IMG/VR virus record: IMGVR_UViG_3300020044_002775
Location: 1-26,152 of that record
DNA length: 26,152 nt
Source of the DNA: a virus
Lineage: Duplodnaviria > Caudoviricetes
Direction: 5' to 3' (one strand)
The position numbers and the translations under genes are program-made. This document shows positions 1 to 18,970 of the stretch, in pieces. The notes under the pieces were generated by a model that saw only the letters and a program-made list of their open reading frames with translations, was not told where the DNA came from and did no database searches. Position 1 is the first letter of the stretch. Every line of letters begins with the position of its first letter.

Positions 1-456
1 CATACGATTGCGACGGTTGGCGCAGAAACTACTGGCGGCGGTCTTGAGCGCGAAGATTTGGTTGCAATGGCTAATGCGCTTCCCGCTCAGTATTGGTATC
101 TGCCTGGCACCGCATGGATGATGCATCCGTCAGCAATTGTTGCGCTGCGGAATTATGCTCACGGCGGCGCAGGTTATTCGTTTGTTGAGATTGGCGAGAA
201 CGGCGAAGGCCCGCTGGTCAATGTGTTTGGTTTCCCGGTAATCCCCAACCCGTATCTAGATGTTTGGGGTACTGTTGGATGCAAGTCTATTTACCTTGCG
301 AACTGGCCGCGATTCCTGAGCATTGCTGACGTTGAGGAAATGACTATTCAAATGATGGAACAAACTGCGCCAGGTTTCATTACCATGTTTGCGCAAAAGC
401 GGATGGTCTCGACCGTTCGCGATCCGTTTGCTGGTGTTCGCGCTATTGGTGTTTGA
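1..456 (+). CDS. Major capsid protein, HK97 fold (C-terminal part, 5' truncated by window)
   Basis: Frame open from base 1. WMMHP...VFGFPVIPNPYLD...IYLANW...ITMFAQKRMVSTVRDPFA matches the C-terminal pattern of HK97-family capsids, and head-tail connector genes follow. Confidence 0.85.
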   Translation, partial: HTIATVGAETTGGGLEREDLVAMANALPAQYWYLPGTAWMMHPSAIVALRNYAHGGAGYSFVEIGENGEGPLVNVFGFPVIPNPYLDVWGTVGCKSIYLANWPRFLSIADVEEMTIQMMEQTAPGFITMFAQKRMVSTVRDPFAGVRAIGV

Positions 457-458
457 TT

Positions 459-1133
459 ATGGCGTTTGATAATCTAATTTCCAGCGGTTACCCTTACGGC
501 GCGTCAAGCCGTAATCCGTTTAATTATGTCAAGTTTGAGCAAATCAATCGTGACGTAACTACGGCATGGTTGACTTTGGAGGAAATGACTCAGCAGTTAA
601 ACCTGTTTGACGATGAAAGCCAGGATTCGTATATTACGTCTCTCGGGCTTGCGACCAGGTTTGCTATTGAAGATTATCTAGGTCTTTCAATCTTTGCGAC
701 GCAATATCGGGTTTGGTATAGCCCGATCGGGTTGATTACGTCGCCGGTATCGCTGGACTTACCTGAAGTAAGCCAAAATTCTAGTCCGTCGCTTGCGGGC
801 GTTACAATTAACAGCGTAGGTTACTGGAATGAAAATAGTCCTAGCACGTTTACAACAATTGCGTCAGGCAATTATTCGTATGATGCGTCGGGTAACAAAG
901 TAATCATGAGCGAGTTGCCGTCAGACATCAATACGTTTATGACGGCTCCGATTGTTGTTGAATACACTACCGCTGCAAGCCCAATTCAAACTTACCCGGT
1001 TGTCAAACAGGCTGCGCTATTGTTGCTGACGCATTTGTATAATCAGCGGTCAAACAGCACCGAAACGCAGTTAAAGAACATTCCGTTTGGCGTTGAGACT
1101 TTGCTTCGGCCATATAAGCCGTTGGTGATGTAA
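459..1133 (+). CDS. Head-tail connector protein (HK97 gp6 / SPP1 gp15-like)
   Basis: LTLEEMTQQLNL...DDESQDSYI near the N-terminus and VVKQAALLLLTHLYNQR...IPFGVETLLRPYK at the C-terminus. Directly after the capsid gene; ATG at 459. Confidence 0.85.
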   Translation: MAFDNLISSGYPYGASSRNPFNYVKFEQINRDVTTAWLTLEEMTQQLNLFDDESQDSYITSLGLATRFAIEDYLGLSIFATQYRVWYSPIGLITSPVSLDLPEVSQNSSPSLAGVTINSVGYWNENSPSTFTTIASGNYSYDASGNKVIMSELPSDINTFMTAPIVVEYTTAASPIQTYPVVKQAALLLLTHLYNQRSNSTETQLKNIPFGVETLLRPYKPLVM

Positions 1134-1477
1134 TGGCCATTGCGCGTTTTGAGAATATTGCCGTCAACAATCTGACTTTTGGGGTCAGTGCGTTTGGCGA
1201 GCAATCAACGACGCAAACTAAATGGTTTGATACTAGAGCCAGAGTTTCATCTGTTGCAAACAGTCTAAAGATTGCTGACAGATACCGGCTGTATCAAGAC
1301 ATGATCAATTTTACTTTGAATTATACGCCAAGCATAAAACTAATGGTTGATCGTCAAGATTTGTATTCGATCACTTGGCGCGGCAATGACTGGAGGATTG
1401 ATAACATTCGGGAAGCTGACGATCGTATGTCAGTGCTTATTCTTTGTTATCGTTCTGATCCTGTTACGGCGGTTTAA
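1133..1477 (+). CDS. Head closure / head-tail adaptor (SPP1 gp16-like)
   Basis: 114 aa, TAATG overlap with the previous gene, beta-rich ITWRGNDWRIDNI pattern, expected synteny. Confidence 0.7.
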   Translation: MAIARFENIAVNNLTFGVSAFGEQSTTQTKWFDTRARVSSVANSLKIADRYRLYQDMINFTLNYTPSIKLMVDRQDLYSITWRGNDWRIDNIREADDRMSVLILCYRSDPVTAV

Positions 1478-3913: not shown

Positions 3914-4392
3914 CAAAAATTGTATCTTTGCTTGGCAATGAATATCAAATCAAACGAAAAGAATTGTCTATTCGAGAATTTGATTTGAATGGCTTTAAAT
4001 TTAAAGTAAAAATTCCGCTGGTAATTGAATCTGATTTGATTTATAAAAAGATTTCTAATCAGCCAGAAGAAAAAGTCAACGAACTATTTTTGAAACTTTC
4101 AGAGCCGTTGCAGAAATTTAAAGACCTTGAAGATTCTTCTATTTCGTTTGAAAATGAAGATGTAAAGGTTGAAGGCAAATCATTAAAAGAAGCAGCAAAA
4201 CTTCAATTAATGACGCAAACTCGAATTACAGAATATATTAAACTGCTTGTGCCTGCAGATGAAAATAGTTCTATGCAAGATATTACTTATGAGGATATTT
4301 CTGCTGAGTGGCCTTTGTCCGTACAATTGGCGCTAGTGGAAAAAATTGGCGAAGTAATTTCACCAACTTATAAGGAAGCAAGGGGAAACTGA
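3910..4392 (+). CDS. Tail assembly chaperone (lambda G-like)
   Basis: Lies two ORFs upstream of the tape measure gene and ends in the slippery heptamer G GGA AAC just before TGA. Confidence 0.75.
   Translation: MTKIVSLLGNEYQIKRKELSIREFDLNGFKFKVKIPLVIESDLIYKKISNQPEEKVNELFLKLSEPLQKFKDLEDSSISFENEDVKVEGKSLKEAAKLQLMTQTRITEYIKLLVPADENSSMQDITYEDISAEWPLSVQLALVEKIGEVISPTYKEARGN
4383..4389 (+). other. Programmed -1 ribosomal frameshift site (GGGAAAC)
   Basis: X XXY YYZ heptamer in the correct phase (G GGA AAC TGA). The -1 frame is open from 4383 to 4754. Confidence 0.85.
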
Positions 4393-4754
4393 TTAGCTCA
4401 TTAAGGACGCAAGTAGAAACTGCGCTTGTCTTTAATGGGCACACACAAGAAACAATTGGCGCAATTGATAGTGAGACAATGGCTAGAATTCAAACCATGT
4501 ACGCTGACGGCATAATTGGCAATCATGGTTTAATAAATCAAATGTCCAAATTAGTTAGCATTGTTTTGAACTATATAAGGCAACCTGGCTCTGCGCCTTA
4601 TACGCAAGAAAAGATTCTTGGTTCCGCTTCTGATTATTTATTTCCGCCTGCAACTGAAGTAGAAGCAAAAGCAAATATAAACGAAAAATTGCTTTCGTTT
4701 ATTAGTCAAGCCCCAGGCTTTAATAAAGAACTATTCGAGAAAAAACATGGCTAA
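4389..4754 (+). CDS. Tail assembly chaperone frameshift extension (lambda T-like part of G-T fusion)
   Basis: The -1 frame reads LISSLRTQVETALVFNGHTQETIGAIDSET and runs into the listed ORF 4479..4754, which overlaps the tape measure start. Confidence 0.75.
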   Translation: MISSLRTQVETALVFNGHTQETIGAIDSETMARIQTMYADGIIGNHGLINQMSKLVSIVLNYIRQPGSAPYTQEKILGSASDYLFPPATEVEAKANINEKLLSFISQAPGFNKELFEKKHG

Positions 4755-6942
4755 TATCGTTTCTAGATTAGGTGTTTTGCTTGGGCTTGATAGTGCTGAG
4801 TTTGTTCGAGGTATTGACGCGGCAAGCAGAAAATTAGCAGACTTTTCTAATGCAGTTGAAAAGAATGGGAAAATTGCTGTTGTTGCTTTTTCTGCTGCAA
4901 CTGTTCAAGCCGTTAGAATGGCAGATGAAATTGCTGATGTAGCAAAAGCAAATGATCTTGCAATTGATTCTGTATTAAAACTTTCTAATGCTTTAATGGT
5001 TTCCGGCGGCGAATATGAAAACGCAGGAAAGCTAATTTCTTCGTTTACAAATTATGTAGACAAAGCCGCAGGCGGTTCGTTTGAAGCGCAAAAAAAGTTT
5101 GCTGATCTTGGTATTTCGCTAAAAGATCTTGAGACTTTGGATCAGCAGGAGTTGTTTAACAAAACAATTCAAAGCCTTGCAAATATGCAAGATCCAATTA
5201 CCCGAAACGCCATGGCAATGGATGTTTTGGGTAAAGCGGCGAAAGGGGTTGATTGGACATCTGTTGCAGATGAAATTCAAAACACTACATCAAAAAACAA
5301 AGAACAAGAACAGGCAATTAAAGACGCTGCTGATGCTTATGATGAAATTCAAAAAGCGGCGTATCAATTTGGTATTACTTTAGCTCAAAGTGTTGGGCCT
5401 CAAATCAAAACCATAATTGATTATATTAAAACCTTTAATTCAGAAACATCTGTGCTTGGTGTTGTAATCAAAACTGTATTTGAAACTATTGCTGTTGTTG
5501 GCGCAAATGTTGCGTACACTTTTCAAACAATTGCATTGAATATAGAAGCGGCATTTAAAGCGTCAGGCGCTGCGCTAAAAGGAGAGTTTGCTTTAGCCGG
5601 GCAAATTCTAGGAGAAAACGAAGTAAGAATTAAAAAAAATCTTGAGCTTTTAAATTCTTTTCAAAATAAAGTCTTGGGAATTAAATCTGCTCCTAGTGAT
5701 AAATCTTTTCTTTACGGCGAAGGTTATGGAACTTCTGAGGTTGATAGTTCTGTAAAAAGAAAAGTAACGTTAGGCGAAGATACAAAAGGCAAATCAGAAA
5801 GAAAAGAACTGCAAAAAAGAGAAGAAGAAATTGCAATTCAAAGAATGCGTAATGCAATTGCTAATGAAAAAACTTTTGCAACTGAAATATCAAAAATAGA
5901 ACTTGAAGCAAAAGAAAAACTTGCAATCGCCAAGCAAAAAATGGATAGCGATAATATTGTTGAAAACAATAAATTTGCAAAACAAAATCTTGAACTATAT
6001 CAACAAACAGAAATTGCAATCAATTTAGAATCCGCTCAAAAAATAAAAGATATTCGCGCTCGCAACAATGCGGATATGGCAAAAGCTGATTTGGACTATC
6101 TTGATGAAATCACTAAATTTCTTGCTGATAGGGAAAATGCTTTTGGAAGCGCGTTGCTCAATCAATCTAAAACAATTGAGTTAGAAAACATTTCCCTTGG
6201 TTTTGCAAAACAAAAACTAGAAGCGCAAAACGAAATGCGATTTGCGACTGACAAAGAATTAAAACTTGCAATGTTGCGTTTGGATACAGAAGAAAAAATT
6301 GCCCGTTACAAATTAGATAAAACTTTGGATGACAAAGGCCGAGAATCTATTATTCAACAATTGCGAGAACAAGAACAAATTAAAGCGGCATCGATTGAAA
6401 CTGAAGATAGATATACAAAAATTGGCCAAGTGTGGGATTCGGTTACCGACAACATGACGCAGGCGTTGGATAACTTTGTCAGAACTGGAAAGCTAAACTT
6501 TAAAGACTTTGCCCGCAGCGTCATTCAAGACTTGATTGCAATCCAGCTTAAAGCGCAGGCAACATCATTGCTGCGTATGGCAATTGGTGCGTTTGGAAAT
6601 ATGTCTTTTGGGACTGGCGCAGGGTATGGCAGTCAAGATTTTGGCGGCTTTTTGGATAGCACTTCTATTGCCACTAGAGCAGAAGGCGGCCCGCTAGAAT
6701 CTGGTCAACTATCAATGGTTGGCGAGCGCGGTCCTGAACTGTTTGTTCCTCGATCTGCGGGCACAATTGTTCCTAACAATGCTTTGTCAGGCATGGGGTC
6801 AACCACAAACGTGACCAACAATTACATCAGCGCCATTGATGTAAAATCGTTTGAGGAACGGCTGTACGGAAGCGCTAAAGCCATTTGGGCAGCAAACGCA
6901 TATGCGGCTAAAGGCCTGGCCACTTCGTCTGGGAGAGCGTAA
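4747..6942 (+). CDS. Tape measure protein (731 aa)
   Basis: N-terminal RLGVLLGLDSAEF, long helical Ala/Lys/Glu-rich body, lambda-like C-terminal FVRTGKLNFKDFARSVI and GGP...VGERGPELFVP. Confidence 0.9.
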   Translation: MANIVSRLGVLLGLDSAEFVRGIDAASRKLADFSNAVEKNGKIAVVAFSAATVQAVRMADEIADVAKANDLAIDSVLKLSNALMVSGGEYENAGKLISSFTNYVDKAAGGSFEAQKKFADLGISLKDLETLDQQELFNKTIQSLANMQDPITRNAMAMDVLGKAAKGVDWTSVADEIQNTTSKNKEQEQAIKDAADAYDEIQKAAYQFGITLAQSVGPQIKTIIDYIKTFNSETSVLGVVIKTVFETIAVVGANVAYTFQTIALNIEAAFKASGAALKGEFALAGQILGENEVRIKKNLELLNSFQNKVLGIKSAPSDKSFLYGEGYGTSEVDSSVKRKVTLGEDTKGKSERKELQKREEEIAIQRMRNAIANEKTFATEISKIELEAKEKLAIAKQKMDSDNIVENNKFAKQNLELYQQTEIAINLESAQKIKDIRARNNADMAKADLDYLDEITKFLADRENAFGSALLNQSKTIELENISLGFAKQKLEAQNEMRFATDKELKLAMLRLDTEEKIARYKLDKTLDDKGRESIIQQLREQEQIKAASIETEDRYTKIGQVWDSVTDNMTQALDNFVRTGKLNFKDFARSVIQDLIAIQLKAQATSLLRMAIGAFGNMSFGTGAGYGSQDFGGFLDSTSIATRAEGGPLESGQLSMVGERGPELFVPRSAGTIVPNNALSGMGSTTNVTNNYISAIDVKSFEERLYGSAKAIWAANAYAAKGLATSSGRA

Positions 6943-8272: not shown

Positions 8273-8709
8273 TTCGGCTAGCAAACAAGTATGACTTGAA
8301 TGCTTGCGTAGAAATGATGCGTCAATATTCTTTTGAATCAGGTATTGATGCTTTATCAGATACAACAGCACACAATTCAGAATATGTATCAAATTTGCTC
8401 TTGTCATTGATTTGTGGCCGGGGCTTTATTTTTATTGATGACCAGCATAGAGGCATGATTGCAGGCATCATTACGCCTAACATCTGGTGTAATTCGGTTA
8501 TGGAATTGCGGGAGTTGGCCTGGTGGATTCATCCAGACTTTAGAAACAAAACAATTGGCGGCAAGTTGTTTTTGGCGTTTAACAAAAAAGCAGATGAGTT
8601 GATAAAACAGAACAGGGTAAAACTTGTTTATATGTCATTGATGAAAAACAGCACAGTTCAATCATTGCCTGGTTACAGAATGATTGACTCAACTTTTATC
8701 AAGGTTTGA
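8269..8709 (+). CDS. GNAT-family acetyltransferase-like protein
   Basis: MIRLA..D start and acetyl-CoA motif A-like WWIHPDFRNKTIGGKL; 146 aa; TTG start overlapping the upstream stop. Confidence 0.7.
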   Translation: MIRLANKYDLNACVEMMRQYSFESGIDALSDTTAHNSEYVSNLLLSLICGRGFIFIDDQHRGMIAGIITPNIWCNSVMELRELAWWIHPDFRNKTIGGKLFLAFNKKADELIKQNRVKLVYMSLMKNSTVQSLPGYRMIDSTFIKV

Positions 8710-8710
8710 T

Positions 8711-11700
8711 ATGCCAGCATCAATAATTCTTGCCGCAATTGGCGCTCAATTAGGCGTAATTGGAACGGCCATAGCAACATTTGCAATTAACTTTGCAGTG
8801 TCAGCAATTGTTAGCCGGGTGTTTATTTCTAAACCTGACGCGCCGCAAGACACTGGCTCGCGCCAGCAGATGCCGCCTAGCTCAGACAATCCGATTCCGA
8901 TTGCTTATGGTGACGCTTGGCTAGGTGGCAAGTTTGTTGATGCTGTTTTGTCTGTCGATCAAAAGACAATGTATTACGTCATGGCTATTAGCCATGTATC
9001 GCCCGATGGATTGTTTACTTTTGATACAAGCAATTTTTATTATGGCGATCGTAAGGTTACTTTTGACGGCACGGATTTAACGAAAGTTGTGTCGTTGACT
9101 GATGGCGCTGGAAATGTTGATACAAAGATTGCAGACGATTTGTATGTGTGGCTGTATCGGTCTACAGCAGCGGGCGTAATCACTCCGCTCAACAGTTCAT
9201 CATTGCCGTCTGTTGTAATGGGCGGGTCAGACATTGCGGTTGCGCAACAGTGGACCGGAACCCGTCAGATGAACGGTTTGGCGTTTGCCATTGTTAAACT
9301 TAACTACAACACAACAGATGGCATTACCAGTCTTTCGCCGCTTACGTTTAAGGTAAACCATTACCTTAATGGCGCTGGCGTTGCTCGCCCTGGTGATGTC
9401 TTTCGTGACTATTTGAACAGCAGTGTTTATGGCGGTGCAGTATCTCTGTCAAACATTAACACTACTGCTTGCTCTGATCTAAACACTTATTCTGATGCGC
9501 TGATTACATATACGCCAAGCGGCGGCGGTTCAGCAACGCAAGCAAGATATCGAATCAACGGCGTTATTGACACCGGCGAGCAAGTGCTTTCCAACGTCAA
9601 TAAAATCATGACGGCTTGCGATTCTTGGATGGCCTATGAGTCTGCTACGGGGCAATGGTCGCCAGTAATCAATAAAGCTTCCGCGACGTCTTTTGCGTTT
9701 AATGATTCTAATATCATTGGCGATATTCGTGTTTCGGTTACTGATCTTGCATCAAGCATCAATCAAATTGAGGCTTCGTTTCCGTTTAAAGGAAACAAGG
9801 ATCAACCTGAGTACATTCGTATTGCAACGCCTAGCGGATTGCTTTATTCAAATGAGCCGGTAAACAAACTCAGCACTTCGTTTGATTTGGTAAACGATTC
9901 GGTGCAGGCAGAATATCTTGCCAATCGTTTGCTTGAGCAGGCCAGGGAAGATTTGATTGTTTCTTTCTCTACTGCATATACTGGTATTCAAGTTAATGCT
10001 GGCGATGTTGTCAGCGTTACCAATACTGCTTACGGTTGGACTGACAAACTATTTCGCGTCCTCAAGGTTCAAGAATCATCATTGCCTGATGGCAACCTTG
10101 GCGCTCATGTTGAGCTTTCAGAGTACAACGTGCAGGTTTATGACGATCTAAGCATTCTGCAGTTTTCTCCTTCGCCAAATAGCAACTTGGTTTCTGGCGC
10201 GTACTTTTCTGCATTGCCTGCGCCGACCGTTGGCGATCTTAATCCCGTAGCAGCGATCCCGACGTTTAGCGTGACTTGTCAAATCCCATCAAGCGGTCGA
10301 GTCAATTCGCTTGTTTTGTTTTACACAACCAACCCAACGCCAGCAATTACCGACTGGAAGGTTTGGGGTTCGCAGACAGAGGCCAGCGGCGGTGCTTATA
10401 CACCATCTCTAGCGATTAAGTTTCCGGATATCAATCTCCCGCCAGCAACTTATTACTTTGCGTATCGAGTATCAAACGACACTGCAACTTCTGCACTGTC
10501 TAGTGCATCACTTGCGCACGTTTGGAATCCGACAGGCATTGCAGGGCCGACAGGTCCGACTGGCACTAGCATCACTGGTCCGACTGGGCCTGCAGTAACT
10601 GGCCCGACTGGTGCAAGCGGAACGCAAACTGCAGCGGTGTATCTGTATCAATGGGCGACTGCAACGCCGGCTAGCCCGACGGGCAGCAGCACATATACAT
10701 GGGCGACTGGCGCTAATAGTGCGTATACCGCAAGCGACGGCTGGACGGTTGCGATCCCATCTAATCCTGGTACGCCTGGCATATACCTATGGTATGCCAC
10801 TAAAACGCTTGTAGAGGCCGCAGGAACGGCTACTACTACCGTCAACTGGACGACCGGCATCACGGTCGGCGCAAGCACTGGAAACGGTATTGCGGGCCAG
10901 AAAACAGCCAAGCCGGCAGTGTATCAATGGGCATCAACAATACCGACGATTTCCGGCACCAGTACATACACTTGGGCGACTGGTGCAATTAGCACTATTC
11001 CGTCGGGTTGGTCTGCTGCGCCTGCAGCATCAACGCCAGGCTTCACGTTGTGGCAAGCGGTTGTTTCTATTTCTGATGCAGATGCAGCAACTACTACGTC
11101 AATCAATTGGACTACTGCAAGCGTTCTTGCAAGCGGTTATGCGGGCACTACTGGCGCTCAAGCGCGGGTAATGTACGCAAGGATTGCAAGCAATCCTACG
11201 CCAACTGCAGGAACTGTTACTGTTACTGGCGACAATCGGCCAACTGGAGCGCAAGCAAGTGCGGTTTGGAATGCGTCATTTAACGTAACTTGGTATGTAT
11301 CAGATCCAGACCCGGCAAGTGCTAACTCGCTATATCAAGCTGATGGTGTTTATAGTCCTTCTGCAAACACTACCAGTTGGTCTGCGCCTTATATCAGCAG
11401 TCTAAAAGTTGGCAATTTAAGTGCGGTATCTGTTAATACTGGATCGTTAGATGTTACTGGTAGCTTGACTGTTGGAACGGTTGGCAATGTTAAAGGCGGA
11501 CAAACTGCATATAACAGTGGCACTGGTTTCTTTTTGGGATATAGCGGTGCTGCTTATAAGTTTTCAATTGGATCAAGTTCTAACTCATTTACTTGGGATG
11601 GCACTAATTTAGCAATTGTCGGTGGAAGTATTAACACTTCTGTTGCTAATGCTAGAGTTTCAATCAATCAATCAGGAAACAATAAGATACAAATTTATGA

Positions 11701-12601
11701 TGCGTCATCTGTTCTTGCGGCAGAGTTTGGAGGCGGAAACGGAGTTATTTATGCAACTGCCGCCTCTATTTTGCAATCAACAATTCAAGGTTATGCAACT
11801 GGATATTTTTCAGGTGTTTATGGTAGTCACGTTTCTTCCGGTGGCGTTTCAACTGTTGCAGCTTCTGGCGTAAGAGGTAAAGCTAGCGGATCAACATCAA
11901 GACATGGTGTATTTGGTGAATCTACGGTTTATGAGGCTGTTTATGGTGAGTCAGTTACTTATGGCGCAACAAATCATGGAGTGCGTGGTAAAAATTTAAA
12001 TGGTGTATCTAGTGGAGTTGCAACCGCCGGTTTTGTTGGCGGCGCTAATGGGTATGACTTTTATGCAGATGGCGCTGGTACAAACTACGGTCCGTTTACT
12101 GGTTCGCATGATGGGCTAATGCCAAACAATTTTGTTTGTGAGCCAGGTAATATTGTGGTTGATGTAACTTGCATATCCAGAAAAAACTGGAGCAACACAT
12201 TGTTTGAAGTGGCGCAATCAAGCCAAGCAAATCAAACCAGTGCTGTTGGTGTTGTTGCGCTAGTTAATGGTCCGCTTTCAATGTTTTATCCTTCTGCTTT
12301 GATTTCAGACCAAGTAACCGAAAACAATGATCCAATCATGCTGCCGTTATACGATCAAATCAAAGGTCAATATACTTTGGTTGCGATTAACGCGGTCGGT
12401 GAAGGTCAGGTGTATGTATGTGGACAAAACGGAAATATTTCTAACGGAGATTACATTTGCACTTCTGATACGCCAGGCAAAGGCATGAAACAAACAAGCA
12501 ATGTTTTATCTAATACAACTGTTGCCAAGGCTAGGGAAAATGTAACTTTTGATTTCCCAGAGCAAATTAAGCAAGTGGCTTGTTTTTACGTTTCCGGTTA
12601 A
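8711..12601 (+). CDS. Tail tip / host-specificity protein (lambda J-like) with fibre extension
   Basis: Hydrophobic N-terminus, PIPIAYG, GLAFAIVKL, RYRINGVIDT, GDVVSVT...WTDKLFRVLKV (phage-tail_3-like), GPT collagen triplets. The C-terminal FTGSH...GEGQVYV...NGDYICTS..PGKGMKQ resembles an autocleaving chaperone. ATG at 8711 preferred over the TTG at 8684. Confidence 0.85.
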   Translation: MPASIILAAIGAQLGVIGTAIATFAINFAVSAIVSRVFISKPDAPQDTGSRQQMPPSSDNPIPIAYGDAWLGGKFVDAVLSVDQKTMYYVMAISHVSPDGLFTFDTSNFYYGDRKVTFDGTDLTKVVSLTDGAGNVDTKIADDLYVWLYRSTAAGVITPLNSSSLPSVVMGGSDIAVAQQWTGTRQMNGLAFAIVKLNYNTTDGITSLSPLTFKVNHYLNGAGVARPGDVFRDYLNSSVYGGAVSLSNINTTACSDLNTYSDALITYTPSGGGSATQARYRINGVIDTGEQVLSNVNKIMTACDSWMAYESATGQWSPVINKASATSFAFNDSNIIGDIRVSVTDLASSINQIEASFPFKGNKDQPEYIRIATPSGLLYSNEPVNKLSTSFDLVNDSVQAEYLANRLLEQAREDLIVSFSTAYTGIQVNAGDVVSVTNTAYGWTDKLFRVLKVQESSLPDGNLGAHVELSEYNVQVYDDLSILQFSPSPNSNLVSGAYFSALPAPTVGDLNPVAAIPTFSVTCQIPSSGRVNSLVLFYTTNPTPAITDWKVWGSQTEASGGAYTPSLAIKFPDINLPPATYYFAYRVSNDTATSALSSASLAHVWNPTGIAGPTGPTGTSITGPTGPAVTGPTGASGTQTAAVYLYQWATATPASPTGSSTYTWATGANSAYTASDGWTVAIPSNPGTPGIYLWYATKTLVEAAGTATTTVNWTTGITVGASTGNGIAGQKTAKPAVYQWASTIPTISGTSTYTWATGAISTIPSGWSAAPAASTPGFTLWQAVVSISDADAATTTSINWTTASVLASGYAGTTGAQARVMYARIASNPTPTAGTVTVTGDNRPTGAQASAVWNASFNVTWYVSDPDPASANSLYQADGVYSPSANTTSWSAPYISSLKVGNLSAVSVNTGSLDVTGSLTVGTVGNVKGGQTAYNSGTGFFLGYSGAAYKFSIGSSSNSFTWDGTNLAIVGGSINTSVANARVSINQSGNNKIQIYDASSVLAAEFGGGNGVIYATAASILQSTIQGYATGYFSGVYGSHVSSGGVSTVAASGVRGKASGSTSRHGVFGESTVYEAVYGESVTYGATNHGVRGKNLNGVSSGVATAGFVGGANGYDFYADGAGTNYGPFTGSHDGLMPNNFVCEPGNIVVDVTCISRKNWSNTLFEVAQSSQANQTSAVGVVALVNGPLSMFYPSALISDQVTENNDPIMLPLYDQIKGQYTLVAINAVGEGQVYVCGQNGNISNGDYICTSDTPGKGMKQTSNVLSNTTVAKARENVTFDFPEQIKQVACFYVSG
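10541..10620 (+). repeat. Collagen-like Gly-Pro-Thr repeats within tail tip gene
   Basis: GPTGPTGTSITGPTGPAVTGPTGASG. Confidence 0.8.
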
Positions 12602-12676: not shown

Positions 12677-13159
12677 ATGGCTTTGTTTTCGCAGAATACG
12701 CTGACGCAAGTATCGGGTTTTGATAACCCGATCATTGCAGGCGAGTTGGTTTACAACCAAAAAACCTTTTGGAATTTGGCGCTTACGTCTGCAGGTTCGC
12801 CTGTTAACCTGACGGGCGTAACCATTAACGCGTCAATTGTGCGCCGCACAATATCTAATCTTGTCGATACCCGCAACGGGTTGACATTTGATATTGGCAA
12901 TTACACGCCAACGCCGACAACGGTGACGTTGACCATTTCCAATCTTAATGCTGCGGCAGGCACGTTTACTGTTGTAATTGATGATTCTACTTGGTCGCTG
13001 GTGACTGGCGATCCTGAGCTAGACATTTCTGCTACAGAGCCTGTTGCGTTTTCCGGTCGAATTAAAATGAGTTTTCCTGCGTCTGGTTCCAGCCCAGCAG
13101 AAGATAACATTATCTTTTTGCTGTTCTTGGTTCGGTCAGACGGCGTTATTAACGTATAA
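12677..13159 (+). CDS. Virion structural protein (possible BppU-like fibre attachment/baseplate domain)
   Basis: [21 protein letters not shown]...[11 protein letters not shown] pattern of Ig-like baseplate-upper domains; sits between the tail tip and fibre genes. Confidence 0.55.
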
Positions 13160-13170
13160 AGGAAAACATC

Positions 13171-14034
13171 ATGGCGAACATTTCCGTTTCAGTTACGGAT
13201 GGCAATAATATTGCTGTTGCAGTAACGCCGTTGCCGACGCAGCTAATTACGATTGATCGAGGTGTTTCTGGCGCTGTTGGCCCAACTGGTCCGACTGGTG
13301 CGCCTGGCTCGGTGCAATCTGTTGGCTTGTCTGCGCCATCTGTCTTTAATGTCAGCGGATCTCCTGTCACCACTACCGGAACTCTTGCTCTTTCTTATTC
13401 AGGCACTCCTTTGCCTGTGCTTAACGGCGGCACCGGGCTGACTACATACACTGCAAACGGGGTTCTTTATGCTAGCGGCACTGGTACGCTTGCAACGGGT
13501 ACTGGACTGCTGTTTAGCTCGACCAATCTGTTGGTTGGTACGTCAACAAACACAAACACTTCTAAGATTGTCGCTGCAGGCACGATCTCCGAGACAGTCG
13601 GCTCTACTCAATACCTAGTCGCTAGTCAGTTCGATGTCGGCGCAGCGCCGAATCAGATCCCGCTGAACCAGTACCTTGGCAGTCTGGCGTATGAAGATGC
13701 TGCAAACATTGCAGGTCAAGTAGGGGTCATTGCTGGCACTGCTGCACTGCCGTCGCTGGTCTCTGCTGTAGATACGGATACGGGAGTGTGGTTCCCTGCG
13801 GCGAATACTGTTGCACTGAGCACTGGTGGGTCTGAGCGGGCGCGGTTTGACTCCTCCGGCAACCTCCTAGTCGGCACTACCGCAGCGGGAACTACCGCAG
13901 CCAAGATAATCGGCATGGGTAACGCAACAGCGCCAACAACCTCTCCTGCTGGCATGGGTCAGTTATACGTTGAAGCGGGTGCGTTGAAGTATCGCGGTTC
14001 GAGCGGCACCGTCACAACCATTGCAGTCGCATAA
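13171..14034 (+). CDS. Tail fibre protein (287 aa)
   Basis: RBS AAGGA; [10 protein letters not shown] triplets, [25 protein letters not shown] beta-fibre repeats, C-terminal [23 protein letters not shown]. Confidence 0.8.
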
Positions 14035-14043
14035 GGTGAAATC

Positions 14044-17000
14044 ATGAGCTTGTCTAATAACTTCCCGACGATCAAACCTTCGCTGCTGCTGGACTTTGCG
14101 AACGTCAATCAACTAGATCCGCGCATTACGTTTACCCGCGCTAGCACGGCTACTTATACCAACAGCAACGGCTTGCTGACCAGTTCTGCTACGAACACGC
14201 CGAGGTTTGACTACAACCCTAATACAGGTGCGCCGCAGGGGTTGTTGGTTGAGGAGCAGCGCACGAATTTGCTGACGTATAGCAGTGAGTTTGATAATGC
14301 GGCTTGGACTAAATTTAGGTCAAATGTTTCTGCAAATGTTATTGCTTCACCAACGGGCAATTTAGATGCAGACAAACTGATTGAAGATACAACTGCAAGC
14401 AATAGCCATTATATTGTTCAAAACCCCTCAGTTGTAAGCGGCTCTGCGTATACATATACTGTATATGCCAAAGATGCTGGCAGGCGTTATTTGCAACTAA
14501 TTTTTACTACCCCAGCATTTAGTGTAAATGTAGTTGCAACTTTTGATCTTATATCTGGCACTAGCACTCAAAGTGGAGGCGTTGCCTCTATTACTAATGC
14601 TGGTAATGGTTGGTATCGTTGTTCAGTGACTGCAACGGCAGCAACAACCACTAACGTTAATTGTCAATTGCGGCTTTCTGATTCCAGTATATCTACGCCA
14701 GCCTCTTACACCGGAGACGGCACCAGTGGCATCTACATCTGGGGCGCTCAACTAGAGGCAGGCGCATTCCCCACTAGCTACGTTCCTTCCACTAACACCT
14801 TCACCAGCCGTGCGTCTGTAGGCTCTTTTGTTGACTCTACCGGCACGTTGCAAAGTGCGGCTATTAACGTAGCGCGGAACACTTATAACCCTAGCAACCT
14901 GACTGCGGCACCGTTTCTGCTGCTAGAGGAGTCTAGGACGAATTCGATTCGCAATAGCACGGGTGTTGGGGCTATTGCTGGTACGCCGGGGACGTTGCCG
15001 ACGAATTGGGTGGGTACAGGAGGTGTAGCTAACGGCTTAACTAGACAAATAGTTGGAGTGGGTGTTGAAAGTGGTACTACCTATGTTGATATAAGATATA
15101 GCGGCACCACAACAGCAGCTTCATTTCATAGTATTAGTGAAGAGACTATTGGAGCGGTGGCCGCATCTTCTGGTCAAACATGGACTCATTCAGCGTATAT
15201 TTCACTTGTTGGTGGTTCTACAACCAATATAAATGCATTTGATATTGGCGTTAACGAATATTCAAGTGCTCCAGCATATTTAACAGGTTTTTCAGTAAAT
15301 ATTGCAATTTCTTCTGGCGCATTGCTTACTAAAAGGTATTTAGTTACACGCACTTTAACAAATGCATCTACAGCATCAATACATCCATTCTTTGCTTTTA
15401 CATATAGCTCTGGTGTCGCTATCGACATCACTCTTCGAATTGGCCTCCCCCAACTCGAACAAGGCTACGGAGCGTCTAGTGTAATCCCCAACTCGCCGAC
15501 ATTTACCAGCCGTGCTAGTGCTGCTACTTACTACAACGCTAGTGGACTGGTGACCAGTGCGGCGACGAACGTAGCGCGTCTTAACTACAACCCGGCGAAT
15601 CTAGCGCAGCCTGCCAACTTGATTCTTGAGAACGCGGCGACGAACCTAATTACTTATAGCAGTGAGTTTGACAACGCGGCTTGGGTTAAGACCAGATCCA
15701 ACATAGCTGCAAATGTTATTGCTTCACCAACGGGCAACGTGGATGCGGATAAGCTGATTGAAGATACGTCAGTAAGCAATACCCACATTGTTTATGCCGC
15801 TCCGGCAGCTGCGTCTAACAGCTATACTTTTTCTGTATATGCAAAAGCAGCGGAAAGAACAGAAATTGCAGTTCGACTTGATTGTGGTACATCAGGTCAA
15901 CAAGTTGGGTTTTTTAATCTTAGTTCTGGAGCAATTGGCACAGTTACATCAAATATAAGGTCATCAATTGCAAGTGCTGGAAATGGTTGGTATAGGTGTT
16001 CTATCTCTACAATAACAAATGATAATATAATCAATGCAGTTTTAATGCCTGCTGTTGGCGGAACTCAAATTTACACCGGCGACGGCGTATCTGGCATCTA
16101 CATCTGGGGTGCTCAACTTGAAACCGGCTCTGCAGCGACTACCTACATCCCTTCGACCAACACCTTTACCAGCCGTGCTAGTACGGGTAGCTACTTCGAT
16201 AGCGCAGGGGTGCTGCAGAGTGCAGCGATTAACGTAGCAAGAAACACATACAACCCGGCTAACCTTGCTGCAGCGCCGTTCTTGTTGCTTGAAGAAGCGC
16301 GGACTAACTCGATCCGCAACAATACGATGGTCGGTGCGGTTGCAGGTACGCCGGGTACGTTGCCGACGAATTGGGTACAAGCAGCGATATCGTCTGGATT
16401 GACTCAACAGATTGTAGGTGTTGGCACTGACAGCGGCATTAATTATATTGAAATTAGGCTTTCTGGCACGACAGCAGATGCTAATGGATACGTATTAAAC
16501 TTTGAGTTGGGAACGCAAATTGCCGCAGCAAACGGTCAGTCTTGGGCTGCTTCTTTGTACTTGGCTATTGTGTCGGGTAGCACTGCAAACATTGCATCCA
16601 TTGTTCAACGGCTTACGGAACGGTCTGCCGCTGGCGCATTTTTGGCATCAACAGATACTACAATTGCTACGGCAACAAGTTCGCTAAAAAACAGATTCTT
16701 TGCAACGCGCACTTTTAACAACGTTTCAACGGCATTTACTACTTCTGCGCTTGTACTAAACATTGTTTCCGGTGTCGCTATCGACATCACTCTCCGTATC
16801 GGCCTCCCCCAACTTGAACAAGGCTACGGAGCGTCTAGCGTTATCCCAACCTCGACAGTAGCAGTCACCCGCGCTGCGGATGTATCGAGTTCTGCAACAA
16901 CCACTCGCGCTGCAGATGTTTATGCGCAAGCAGCGCTGACCAGAAGTGCGGATGTGTCGAGTTCTGCGCAGACTACCCGCGCTGCGGAGGCTGCAGCCGT

Positions 17001-17469
17001 TAACAATTTGACGCCTTGGTACAACCAGACGGAAGGGACGTTGTTTGCGGAGGGATCGCGTATCGCAGCAGGCTTAACTTCTGGTGTAATGGTAGGTTTT
17101 GCACAAACTTTGACATTTAATCAATCAATGTATATGTCAAATGACATTGGGAATGGAAATTCAATAACAAGCAGAGTCATTAACGGAGGGGTAATACAGG
17201 CGACACTTGGTGGCCCGGTAGCTACAGGTGTTACCAACACCTTCAAAACCACATTGGCGTACGCCACAAATAATTTTGCAGGCTCTATCAATGGGGCAAC
17301 TCCACTTACCGATGTATCCGGCACAGTTCCAACCCCAATACAAGTTCTTGCAATTGGTAGCGCACCTTGGAGTGCTATTGGCGAAACAAACTGGTCTGGA
17401 TACATCCGCCGTATTGCTTACTACCCAAAACGTCTCTCTAACACCGAACTTCAAGGAATTACATCATGA
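14044..17469 (+). CDS. Large fibre/spike protein with four carbohydrate-binding-like modules and a C-terminal LamG/ConA-like domain
   Basis: SLLLDFAN...ITFTRASTATY...GLLVEEQRTNLL, NGWYRCS, IYIWGAQLE.G, TRAAD and terminal GYIRRIAYYPKRLSNTELQ motifs, typical of phage spike/fibre lectin-like proteins. Confidence 0.8.
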   Translation: MSLSNNFPTIKPSLLLDFANVNQLDPRITFTRASTATYTNSNGLLTSSATNTPRFDYNPNTGAPQGLLVEEQRTNLLTYSSEFDNAAWTKFRSNVSANVIASPTGNLDADKLIEDTTASNSHYIVQNPSVVSGSAYTYTVYAKDAGRRYLQLIFTTPAFSVNVVATFDLISGTSTQSGGVASITNAGNGWYRCSVTATAATTTNVNCQLRLSDSSISTPASYTGDGTSGIYIWGAQLEAGAFPTSYVPSTNTFTSRASVGSFVDSTGTLQSAAINVARNTYNPSNLTAAPFLLLEESRTNSIRNSTGVGAIAGTPGTLPTNWVGTGGVANGLTRQIVGVGVESGTTYVDIRYSGTTTAASFHSISEETIGAVAASSGQTWTHSAYISLVGGSTTNINAFDIGVNEYSSAPAYLTGFSVNIAISSGALLTKRYLVTRTLTNASTASIHPFFAFTYSSGVAIDITLRIGLPQLEQGYGASSVIPNSPTFTSRASAATYYNASGLVTSAATNVARLNYNPANLAQPANLILENAATNLITYSSEFDNAAWVKTRSNIAANVIASPTGNVDADKLIEDTSVSNTHIVYAAPAAASNSYTFSVYAKAAERTEIAVRLDCGTSGQQVGFFNLSSGAIGTVTSNIRSSIASAGNGWYRCSISTITNDNIINAVLMPAVGGTQIYTGDGVSGIYIWGAQLETGSAATTYIPSTNTFTSRASTGSYFDSAGVLQSAAINVARNTYNPANLAAAPFLLLEEARTNSIRNNTMVGAVAGTPGTLPTNWVQAAISSGLTQQIVGVGTDSGINYIEIRLSGTTADANGYVLNFELGTQIAAANGQSWAASLYLAIVSGSTANIASIVQRLTERSAAGAFLASTDTTIATATSSLKNRFFATRTFNNVSTAFTTSALVLNIVSGVAIDITLRIGLPQLEQGYGASSVIPTSTVAVTRAADVSSSATTTRAADVYAQAALTRSADVSSSAQTTRAAEAAAVNNLTPWYNQTEGTLFAEGSRIAAGLTSGVMVGFAQTLTFNQSMYMSNDIGNGNSITSRVINGGVIQATLGGPVATGVTNTFKTTLAYATNNFAGSINGATPLTDVSGTVPTPIQVLAIGSAPWSAIGETNWSGYIRRIAYYPKRLSNTELQGITS
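14128..16866 (+). repeat. Four internal modules A(14128)-B(14797)-A'(15499)-B'(16162)
   Basis: Each module starts TFT(S)RAS and ends QLExG..x(Y/V)(V/I)P. A/A' and B/B' share near-identical DNA blocks, e.g. 14330-14360 = 15707-15737. Confidence 0.9.
16867..16989 (+). repeat. Four 36-nt (12-aa) TRAAD repeats
   Basis: TRAADVSSSATT / TRAADVYAQAAL / TRSADVSSSAQT / TRAAE at 16867, 16903, 16939, 16975. Confidence 0.9.
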
Positions 17470-17729
17470 TTGACTACTACCTGAAATTTGACACTGAAGC
17501 TGATGCTGCAGCAGTGCTTTACGACGGCGATCAGCCTAAGTACCCGAACACCGATGTCATTGGCGTGATCTACAAACCCACTGGCGCGACTGTTGATACG
17601 CCGGATGGCCCGATGCCGGAAATGGCTCCTCTTGATGGTTGGCACGTTAATGTGCGGTGTATCGAAGAGCAACCGGAACTGGACGCTTATGTTGTGCAGG
17701 TTAAAACGCCGGTAAGGGTCTGGGCATGA
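17466..17729 (+). CDS. Hypothetical fibre-associated protein (87 aa)
   Basis: ATGA coupling to the spike gene; DYYLKF...DVIGVIYKPTG...GWHVNVR...PVRVWA. Confidence 0.7.
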   Translation: MIDYYLKFDTEADAAAVLYDGDQPKYPNTDVIGVIYKPTGATVDTPDGPMPEMAPLDGWHVNVRCIEEQPELDAYVVQVKTPVRVWA

Positions 17730-17881: not shown

Positions 17882-18970
17882 ATGAAAATAGCAGTTTATG
17901 CAATTAGTAAAAACGAATCGTTATTTGTCAAACGGTTTTGCGATTCAGCTAAAGACGCAGATGTTATTCTGATTGCCGATACTGGCAGCATTGACGACAC
18001 AGTTCAGATTGCTAAACAATGCGGCGCATCAGTCTATAACATCTGCGTTTCTCCTTGGCGGTTTGATATTGCTCGGGACACTGCGCTATCTCTAATTCCT
18101 GCTGATGTTGACGTTTGCATTAGCTTGGATTTGGATGAAGTGCTTGAACCTGGCTGGCGCGAAGAAATTGAACGGGTATGGAAATCTGATACCACTCGAT
18201 TGCAATACAAGTTTGACTGGGGCGCTGGCATCAGCTTCTACTATCAAAAGATCCATCATCGCAAAGGCTATCACTGGCATCATCCAGTGCATGAGTACCC
18301 AAGGCCAGACGGTAGAACTGCAGAGGTCTATGCATACACAGACAAACTGCTGGTCAGTCATCATCCAGACAACACAAAGTCTCGCGGCCAATACCTTGAT
18401 CTGCTGCGCCTTGCAGTCAAAGAAGATCCTACGTGCCCGCGCAACGCTTTCTACTTTGCGCGTGAATTGACGTTCTACGGATTGTGGCAAGAATCAATTG
18501 ACGCACTGCAAAAGTATCTTGCGATGCCTGGTGCTGATTGGGCAAACGAACGTTGTTACGCAATGCGGTTGCTTGGCAAAGCGCATGAGGCGCTGAACAT
18601 GGATGGATTTGTTTGGTATCGAAGGGCTTGCGCAGAAGCGCCAGGCACCCGCGAGCCTTGGGTAGATCTTGCGCTGGCTTGCTACAAGCGAGAGCGTTGG
18701 GCTGAGTGTTATTCCTCAGTTAGCACTGCGCTGGCAATCAAAGAAAAGGAATTGGTCTATACCTGCGAGCCTGCAGTCTGGACTGAGCAACCTCATGATC
18801 TGGCTGCTATTTCCGCATATCATTTGGGTTTATTTGCGGTTGCTCTAACTCACGGTACAATTGCGGCTGATATGGCCCCTGAAAATCAGAGGCTTGCCAA
18901 CAATGTAGTCTTTTACCGAGAGTCATTAGACAATGGCCCAACCAAGTCAAGAGGACTTCAACCGGCTTGA
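17882..18970 (+). CDS. Glycosyltransferase family 2 with C-terminal TPR-like helices
   Basis: KNE...IADTGSIDDT, F..ARD.AL, DxD-type SLDLDE, W..PVHE, then helical repeats (RNAFYFAREL, REPWVDLALACY). Confidence 0.9.
   Translation: MKIAVYAISKNESLFVKRFCDSAKDADVILIADTGSIDDTVQIAKQCGASVYNICVSPWRFDIARDTALSLIPADVDVCISLDLDEVLEPGWREEIERVWKSDTTRLQYKFDWGAGISFYYQKIHHRKGYHWHHPVHEYPRPDGRTAEVYAYTDKLLVSHHPDNTKSRGQYLDLLRLAVKEDPTCPRNAFYFARELTFYGLWQESIDALQKYLAMPGADWANERCYAMRLLGKAHEALNMDGFVWYRRACAEAPGTREPWVDLALACYKRERWAECYSSVSTALAIKEKELVYTCEPAVWTEQPHDLAAISAYHLGLFAVALTHGTIAADMAPENQRLANNVVFYRESLDNGPTKSRGLQPA

Follow-up and report, generated by a model that had tools for sequence, protein, structure and literature searches.

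One of the closest described counterparts of the phage fibre analysed here is Rcc01080 (GhsB), the head-spike fibre of the gene transfer agent (GTA) RcGTA, which is flexible, monomeric and capsule-binding according to the available parts of its descriptions (PMC7296036, PMC10218006). Our subject, P0001, is a fibre of 1141 amino acids (aa) encoded by a single open reading frame (ORF). The window, that is, the whole stretch of DNA analysed, is a linear record of an uncultured virus from IMG/VR; it has 26,152 bases and a CheckV completeness of about 70%. Rcc01080 has the same opening motif, jelly-roll and closing motif as P0001 (LTRATSATY ... QLEAG..VIPT..VTRAAD), and the two proteins match with an E-value of 3.4e-44 by sequence, over residues 10-270, and 7e-70 by profile, but Rcc01080 is a one-module protein with a single opening and a single closing, whereas P0001 carries four of each, likely nested within one chain. 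The single-module form to which the initial annotation of this DNA had referred does exist, Rcc01080 reading ...LTRATSATY...QLEAGAAVSSVIPTEAAAVTRAAD. As far as the accessible part of the Rcc01080 description goes, the two proteins also differ in an N-terminal Leu-Gly repeat, which anchors Rcc01080 to the head-spike base and is missing from P0001. The entries 6TB9 and 9OCC were considered as solved structures of the domain and rejected, because, by the available sections of the corresponding papers (PMC7296036, PMC12724387), the modelled part is limited to residues 2-10 for Rcc01080 and 3-165 for Sf11 gp17; on that partial account, the fold of Rcc01080 is therefore known from prediction only.

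The only solved structure of a P0001-type jelly-roll that we found is that of the baseplate wedge proteins E217 gp45 (8ENV) and Pa193 gp46 (9B45), with a profile E-value of 1.5e-24. In these proteins, too, the jelly-roll is itself an insertion, with one strand before it and one after; in contrast to P0001, they are described, in the accessible portions of PMC10329688 and PMC11456595, as myophage baseplate proteins with a single inserted domain, without a TFTxRAS head, a TRAAD motif or nesting. Copies of a beta-sandwich motif inserted into one another are found in Si3 of the cyanobacterial RNA polymerase beta' subunit, where a number of domains are assembled in part from stretches far apart in the chain, but the available text on Si3 concerns an unrelated fold (the sandwich-barrel hybrid motif, SBHM) of fixed architecture in a cellular enzyme rather than a host-recognition protein, and describes no short repeated closing motif of variable copy number (PMC10895346). 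The resemblance between P0001 and Si3 is one of design, not descent. Finally, the predicted fold of the P0001 base domain resembles those of the concanavalin A (ConA)-like and carbohydrate-binding module (CBM) 40 domains, such as the NanB and NanC lectin domains and AbnA domain 4, from which it differs in its low identity (10-15%, and no Pfam match) and in being split after the first strand by a 950-residue insertion. A literature search, with subscription journals outside its coverage, found no description of the opening/closing rule or of a nested fibre architecture. Recursive nesting as a concept is already known from Si3, and the opening/closing rule is undescribed in the literature searched.

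Openings and closings in P0001 and its relatives

Each of the four modules of P0001 starts with a TFTRAS or TFTSRAS opening (residues 29, 252, 486 and 707; nucleotide (nt) positions 14128, 14797, 15499 and 16162), followed by ...L(L/V)EE.RTN and then by a jelly-roll ending QLE.G...(I/V)P. The four closings all lie after jelly-roll 4 at a spacing of exactly 12 aa, namely TRAAD at residue 942 (16867-16881), TRAAD at 954 (16903-16917), TRSAD at 966 (16939-16953) and TRAAE at 978 (16975-16989), the first of them beginning about six residues past jelly-roll 4. The initial annotation had described four TFT(S)RAS modules without a TRAAD between them and four TRAAD-type motifs stacked at 12-aa spacing after the last module, and both statements were confirmed, with no TRAAD-like motif between the modules in the sequence. 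The junctions (STN/NSP/STN) and linkers (VSSSATT/VYAQAAL/VSSSAQT) read as claimed as well; the mirrored same-different-same order of the linkers, which had been offered as evidence of nesting, adds nothing independent, given that any A-B-A-B duplication yields this pattern.

P0001 belongs to the NCBIfam family NF048003 (GTA_spike_fiber domain-containing), matching it with 345.6 bits in four stretches, and all four jelly-rolls pass the curated cut-off of 36 bits (167, 42.5, 149 and 47.8 bits for modules 1-4). The phage fibre family around P0001 is very large, with 42,275 cluster representatives at E<=0.001. Pfam searches of whole P0001 returned no family at E<=1, including PF13385 (Laminin_G_3) and PF02018 (CBM_4_9), and a Pfam search of residues 983-1141 gave no match; precomputed annotations with PF13385 and PF02018 exist for some homologues, and clusters of the ConA-like/Laminin_G_3 type (PF13385) were the atlas lead for the base domain (score 0.95).

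To count the two elements across relatives, three profiles were built, for the opening head (consensus PRITFTRASTATYFDSNGLLK), the closing (TSAAVTRAADVASST) and the jelly-roll, and the detector thresholds were placed where shuffled sequences yielded zero matches. The training set for the closing was chosen by position after the jelly-roll, and opening counts never entered training. In 240 homologues, the closing profile produced 370 matches at 4 bits or more and the opening profile 368 at 6 bits or more, with none in the shuffled sequences in either case. Under these fixed automatic thresholds, openings and closings were equal in number and formed balanced brackets in 352 of the 426 homologues of five samples, which were pooled without mutual de-duplication: homologues of near-equal length (100/120), shorter homologues (108/120), longer homologues (21/31, of which 14 contained neither element), complete ORFs from 80 IMG/VR loci (72/79) and new representatives of 50% clusters (51/76). 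For the near-length sample, 2000 permutations of the closing counts gave a mean of 38 and a maximum of 55 equal proteins, compared with the 100 observed, and opening and closing numbers were correlated with a Spearman coefficient of 0.91. The initial annotation had proposed such a comparison of module and TRAAD numbers in homologues, and its outcome favours the claim, uncorrelated counts not having been seen.

The count rule applies to the TFTxRAS heads, not to the jelly-rolls, the number of which equalled that of closings in only 37 of the 120 near-length homologues; many relatives hold several jelly-rolls in one bracket. Neighbouring closings were 12 aa apart in 101 of 104 pairs. When an opening, a jelly-roll and a closing are written as "(", "j" and ")", P0001 and P0002 both read (j(j(j(j)))), many two-module forms read (j(j)), and other strings include (jjjj), with four jelly-rolls in a single bracket, the serial stacks of P0006, (j(j))(j(j(j))), and (jj)j(jj), in which the second stack lies inside the base domain, between ...ITGSNFG and SWYRQ.... 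The maximum nesting depth observed was 5. P0002 is 51% identical to P0001, its modules are orthologous by position and it keeps both the 4+4 form and the VY.QAAL linker; therefore, the architecture predates the split between the two proteins and was retained. A second insertion slot, located in the base domain after the first closing, was seen in P0010, P0013, P0018, P0025 and others, where the base starts ...VASITGSNFG, jelly-rolls and a second opening/closing pair intervene, and the base resumes ...SVFESSWYRQ.

Predicted structure and order of pairing

A full-length AlphaFold2 model of P0001, computed from a 49-sequence alignment, had a mean predicted local distance difference test (pLDDT) score of 82.2 and a predicted template modelling (pTM) score of 0.55. 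Dozens of ConA-like lectin domains align to model residues 7..1141 through 11..1141, over 167-194 residues with a root-mean-square deviation (rmsd) of 2.1-3.0 and Z of 15-18.6. These alignments start at residues 7-11 and exceed the 159 residues of the C-terminal part alone, so that the first strand of the predicted base domain precedes opening 1. Among the matches are AbnA domain 4 (5ho2; Z 18.6, rmsd 2.8, 192 residues aligned), the NanC lectin domain (4yw1_A; Z 17.9, rmsd 2.2, 170 residues) and a CBM40 (6er3_B; Z 17.0). Superposition over most of the domain, on the predicted model only, supports the reading of residues ~9-28 and ~983-1141 as one ConA-like domain.

The pairings between modules and closings were read from the first and last aligned residue in VIA-align superpositions. 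The superposition of Pa193 gp46 chain v (9b45_v, residues 187..398) spans model 56..982 (Z 22.9, rmsd 2.0, 187 residues aligned, 26% identity) and stops exactly where closing 4 ends, at residue 982. Another chain of Pa193 gp46 (9b45_1, Z 22.2) and E217 gp45 (8env_K, residues 182..405, Z 18.9) both superpose on model 508..965, which is module 3, ending just past closing 2. For jelly-roll 2 (model 299..474), the matches were of CBM4-like type (4bj0_A, Z 13.7, rmsd 2.7, 155 residues aligned; 1gui_A, Z 12.1). Past its jelly-roll, E217 gp45 continues as ...TTGAPVTITDYVLQ, a strand at the place where P0001 has the next opening, and P0001 supplies this strand later. In the model, each of these domains is thus completed after its insert, as expected of recursive nesting (base 7..1141, module 1 56..982, module 3 508..965), and the proposal of the initial annotation that each module is inserted in the previous one is supported by the count rule together with the superpositions. 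It had further paired TRAAD 1-4 with modules B', A', B and A, respectively; of these pairings, TRAAD 4 with module 1 and TRAAD 2 with module 3 are borne out by the superpositions. As for the remaining two, closing 1 is inferred to belong to module 4, and closing 3 to module 2, because closing 1 lies about six residues past jelly-roll 4 and is modelled confidently, whereas opening 2 is not.

The closing array could also be a spacer, or a small separate element, the length of which matches the number of stalk segments without one-to-one pairing of strands. Such a reading would fit the low confidence of closing 3 in the full model (ten-residue block pLDDT of 93, 88, 51 and 81 for closings 1-4) and the outcome of folding residues 704-1141 alone, with 10 sequences covering the four closings evenly, where the mean pLDDT was 53.4 and opening 4 and all closings fell below 50. 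We consider it quite unlikely, given that the period is exactly 12 residues, that closings 1, 2 and 4 are confident short strands in the full-length model, that serial stacks, for example (j(j))(j(j(j))), occur among the bracket orders of relatives, and that the solved single module superposes along with the closing region.

Another possibility is that the closings complete the openings of a second chain, giving an oligomer through strand exchange. Equal counts would be expected from pairing in trans, too, and the trimeric state is common among phage fibres. Against this, the monomer model closes on itself, with both termini within one domain, closing 1 starts about six residues past jelly-roll 4, and the RcGTA relative has a single subunit per spike according to the accessible part of PMC7296036, making trans pairing very unlikely for P0001.

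Several observations weigh against the nested reading or against its details. Closing 3 and opening 2 (block pLDDT 37-52) are low-confidence parts of the model, and the pairings rest on the end residues of two superpositions, involving modules 1 and 3 only. Those same two superpositions, which put closing 4 on module 1 and closing 2 on module 3, are also compatible with one-to-one pairing in an order other than the reverse one, for example with 1-4 as the outer pair and the inner closings used in forward order (2-1, 3-2, 4-3). Similarity of junctions and linkers across 53 nested proteins did not separate the two orders, being slightly higher for the forward (r 0.341) than for the reverse order (r 0.318), and for both above the 0.234 (standard deviation 0.046) of random pairing. 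The forward inner order is nonetheless highly improbable: it requires the chain to cross itself, it would pair closing 1, confident in the model (93), with opening 2, which is not (37-52), and it is at odds with the position of closing 1, which, only about six residues past jelly-roll 4, must adjoin module 4. The joint pLDDT dip at opening 2 and closing 3 was considered as independent evidence for their pairing and rejected, because the low-confidence parts are those thinly covered by the alignment (9 of 48 rows for closing 3, 1 of 48 for opening 2). In 207 single-module proteins, the pairs with the highest mutual information were head position 2 with closing position 14 (0.25) and head position 3 with closing position 12 (0.139), the controls not exceeding 0.063 and 0.115. 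These values probably stem from co-variation between the N-terminal segment and the beginning of the base domain and were not taken to prove that head and closing touch.

The count rule has its own apparent exceptions, 74 of the 426 proteins being unequal under the automatic thresholds. Most of these were inspected by eye, which is a judgement and not a rule-based count. Many proved to be cut proteins, in which the sequence sets in within a jelly-roll or past the head or stops short of the base domain; others have diverged motifs that score below threshold (TKALD, TRAKD, QRGAD, TRADD, LRSAD, NRAAD and TRIGE in place of the closing, and a TFTSRAAS head in P0012). P0293 (2 versus 3) and P0318 (3 versus 4) were still unequal after inspection, and P0076 has four openings with three clear closings and a degenerate fourth segment, without a base domain. 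As to the comparison with RcGTA, the anchor (I/L)-x-L-G-L-G-L-G-L, which the available text of PMC7296036 links to binding of a pentameric spike base, is absent from P0001, whose N terminus is MSLSNNFPTIKPSLLLDF, and the neighbouring genes at 12677-13156 and 17466-17726 had no sequence match in the PDB at E<=1 and none to the spike base. With no such anchor, no spike-base match in these PDB sequence searches and a location among tail genes, P0001 falls outside the functional class of RcGTA-type head spike fibres (GhsB).

Taken with these reservations, the evidence makes it likely, on the predicted model, that P0001 is a single-chain, probably glycan-binding phage fibre with four jelly-rolls nested within a split ConA-like base domain. 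The chain would start with one base-domain strand (about residues 9-28), run outward through each opening and its jelly-roll in turn, from opening 1 to jelly-roll 4, return as four short closings that complete modules 4, 3, 2 and 1 in order, and finally form the remainder of the base domain (residues 985-1141). On such a route, both termini would meet at the base, with jelly-roll 4 at the opposite, far end.

DNA repeats and possible growth of the fibre

At the DNA level, the modules form an A-B-A'-B' duplication: the segment comprising opening 1 and jelly-roll 1 is 69.3% identical to that of opening 3 and jelly-roll 3 (641 nt), the corresponding segments of modules 2 and 4 are 68.9% identical (672 nt), and closings 1-2 are 66.7% identical to closings 3-4 (72 nt); therefore, each block was duplicated once, and the divergence of both is similar. 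Local DNA repeats within the gene reach 73-90% identity. Jelly-rolls 2 and 4 are 90% identical over their final 87 nt (15409-15495 and 16768-16854), compared with about 69% for whole modules, a difference suggesting that the module ends are strongly constrained or have undergone gene conversion. Tandem Repeats Finder did not report the 36/72-nt closing array.

The initial annotation had argued that simple tandem duplication cannot produce this layout. That holds for one tandem duplication, but the nested 4+4 form can be reached by either of two other routes, and needs one of them: self-insertion of a whole unit, or unequal crossover occurring twice, once among the modules and once within the 36-nt closing array. 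Both routes fit the similar degree to which module and closing duplicates have diverged. Serial stacks, as expected from tandem duplication of whole units, are present in P0006 and P0022. Copy number might grow through duplication of module blocks (about 1.37 kb here) accompanied by a separate duplication of 36-nt closing units (72 nt here), with unbalanced forms removed by selection; the rarity of clearly unbalanced proteins suggests selection of this kind. Separately, three single-module genes of the family (L052, L057 and L011) lie head to tail on one phage contig, an arrangement indicating that phages multiply modules as separate genes as well as within one chain.

Genomic setting, function and significance

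The fibre ORF is preceded by a sequence resembling a ribosome-binding site (AAGGTGA) ahead of its ATG, and its product matches PHROG 5939, "tail protein", at E 2.3e-145 (Table 1). Based on PHROG matches, the gene order in the window is the end of the major head protein, an adaptor, the major tail protein, the tape measure (4747-6942), tail proteins, a 1305-aa fibre/hub (8684-12601), a collagen-like 287-aa fibre (13171-14034), P0001, a glycosyltransferase and an endolysin, so that P0001 is the final large gene in a tail module of siphophage type.

Table 1. Coordinates of the fibre gene in the window and of its parts, with the basis for each
Feature	Residues	Position	Strand	Basis
Fibre gene, 1141 aa (P0001)		14044..17469	+	ORF and translation; PHROG 5939
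N-terminal strand of predicted split base domain (PSLLLDFAN...)	9-28	14068..14127	+	VIA-align rows; model strand 14-17
Opening 1, TFTRAS...LLVEE	29-66	14128..14241	+	Opening profile; strands 29-31, 36-39, 45-48, 54-57, pLDDT 84-90
Jelly-roll 1, A type	67-251	14242..14796	+	NF048003, 167 bits at 14245-14814; Pa193 gp46 superposition
Opening 2, TFTSRAS...	252-290	14797..14913	+	Opening profile; pLDDT 37-52, poor model
Jelly-roll 2, B type	291-485	14914..15498	+	NF048003, 42.5 bits; CBM4-like superposition
Opening 3	486-524	15499..15615	+	Opening profile; strands 486-489, 494-497, 503-506
Jelly-roll 3, A' type	525-706	15616..16161	+	NF048003, 149 bits; Pa193 gp46 and E217 gp45 superpositions
Opening 4	707-745	16162..16278	+	Opening profile; pLDDT 90-93
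Jelly-roll 4, B' type	746-936	16279..16851	+	NF048003, 47.8 bits; pLDDT mostly 85-92
Four closing 12-mers	937-984	16852..16995	+	Sequence; 72-nt period; strands 941-943, 947-951, 953-955, 959-961, 977-979, 983-986
C-terminal body of predicted base domain, ConA-like	985-1141	16996..17466	+	VIA-align

The 1305-aa tail fibre/hub-like protein, on the + strand, contains collagen-like GPTGPTG runs and internally repeated Y.WATG... segments, and its family matches are weak only (phrog_5616, E 2e-24; PF13550, 17.8 bits, under its cut-off). The 287-aa protein, encoded directly upstream of the nested fibre gene on the same strand, has a short collagen-like stretch and weak matches to tail-fibre PHROGs. 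The glycosyltransferase, of family 2, is located at 17882-18970 (+), between the fibre and the lysis genes (phrog_13126, E 1.5e-101; PF00535, 24.9 bits), and its target might be the host surface or a protein of the virion. At 4001-6000, a region around the beginning of the tape-measure gene, the G+C content drops to 0.35-0.36, compared with 0.43-0.58 in the rest of the window.

The RcGTA-like A jelly-rolls, the CBM4-like B jelly-rolls and the base resembling sialidase lectin domains are the grounds for reading P0001 as a multivalent fibre with lectin-like domains. Most likely, P0001 serves a siphophage with a GTA-like tail as a multivalent, glycan-binding fibre made of one chain. It would present five lectin-like domains, and its jelly-rolls and lectin-like base may bind host surface polysaccharide multivalently, for the first, reversible step of adsorption; capsular polysaccharide is bound by the RcGTA head-spike fibre, according to the accessible part of PMC10218006.

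Because recursive nesting is known from Si3, P0001 matters as the representative of a rule in a large family and not as a new principle. We tentatively suggest, as a possibility well short of established, that a very large fibre family may be built by a bracket grammar, in which any number of lectin modules can be stacked within one another, to a depth of at least five, a head of about 38 residues opens a level and one 12-residue strand closes it, and a 36-nt return-strand array co-varies with 0.7-kb modules hundreds of codons upstream. If so, these fibres would represent a new, evolvable route to a branched, single-chain, multivalent adhesin, and a natural case of two distant repeat arrays in one gene kept at equal copy number by protein folding.

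The fibre family of P0001 is very large and mostly unannotated, and host-recognition proteins set which bacteria a phage or gene transfer agent reaches. The nested architecture, if true, would explain why these fibres are misread by simple domain counting, make their shape predictable from sequence by counting brackets, and show how phages gain and lose binding modules without breaking the fold. A nested fibre of this kind could also serve as a scaffold for engineered multivalent display.

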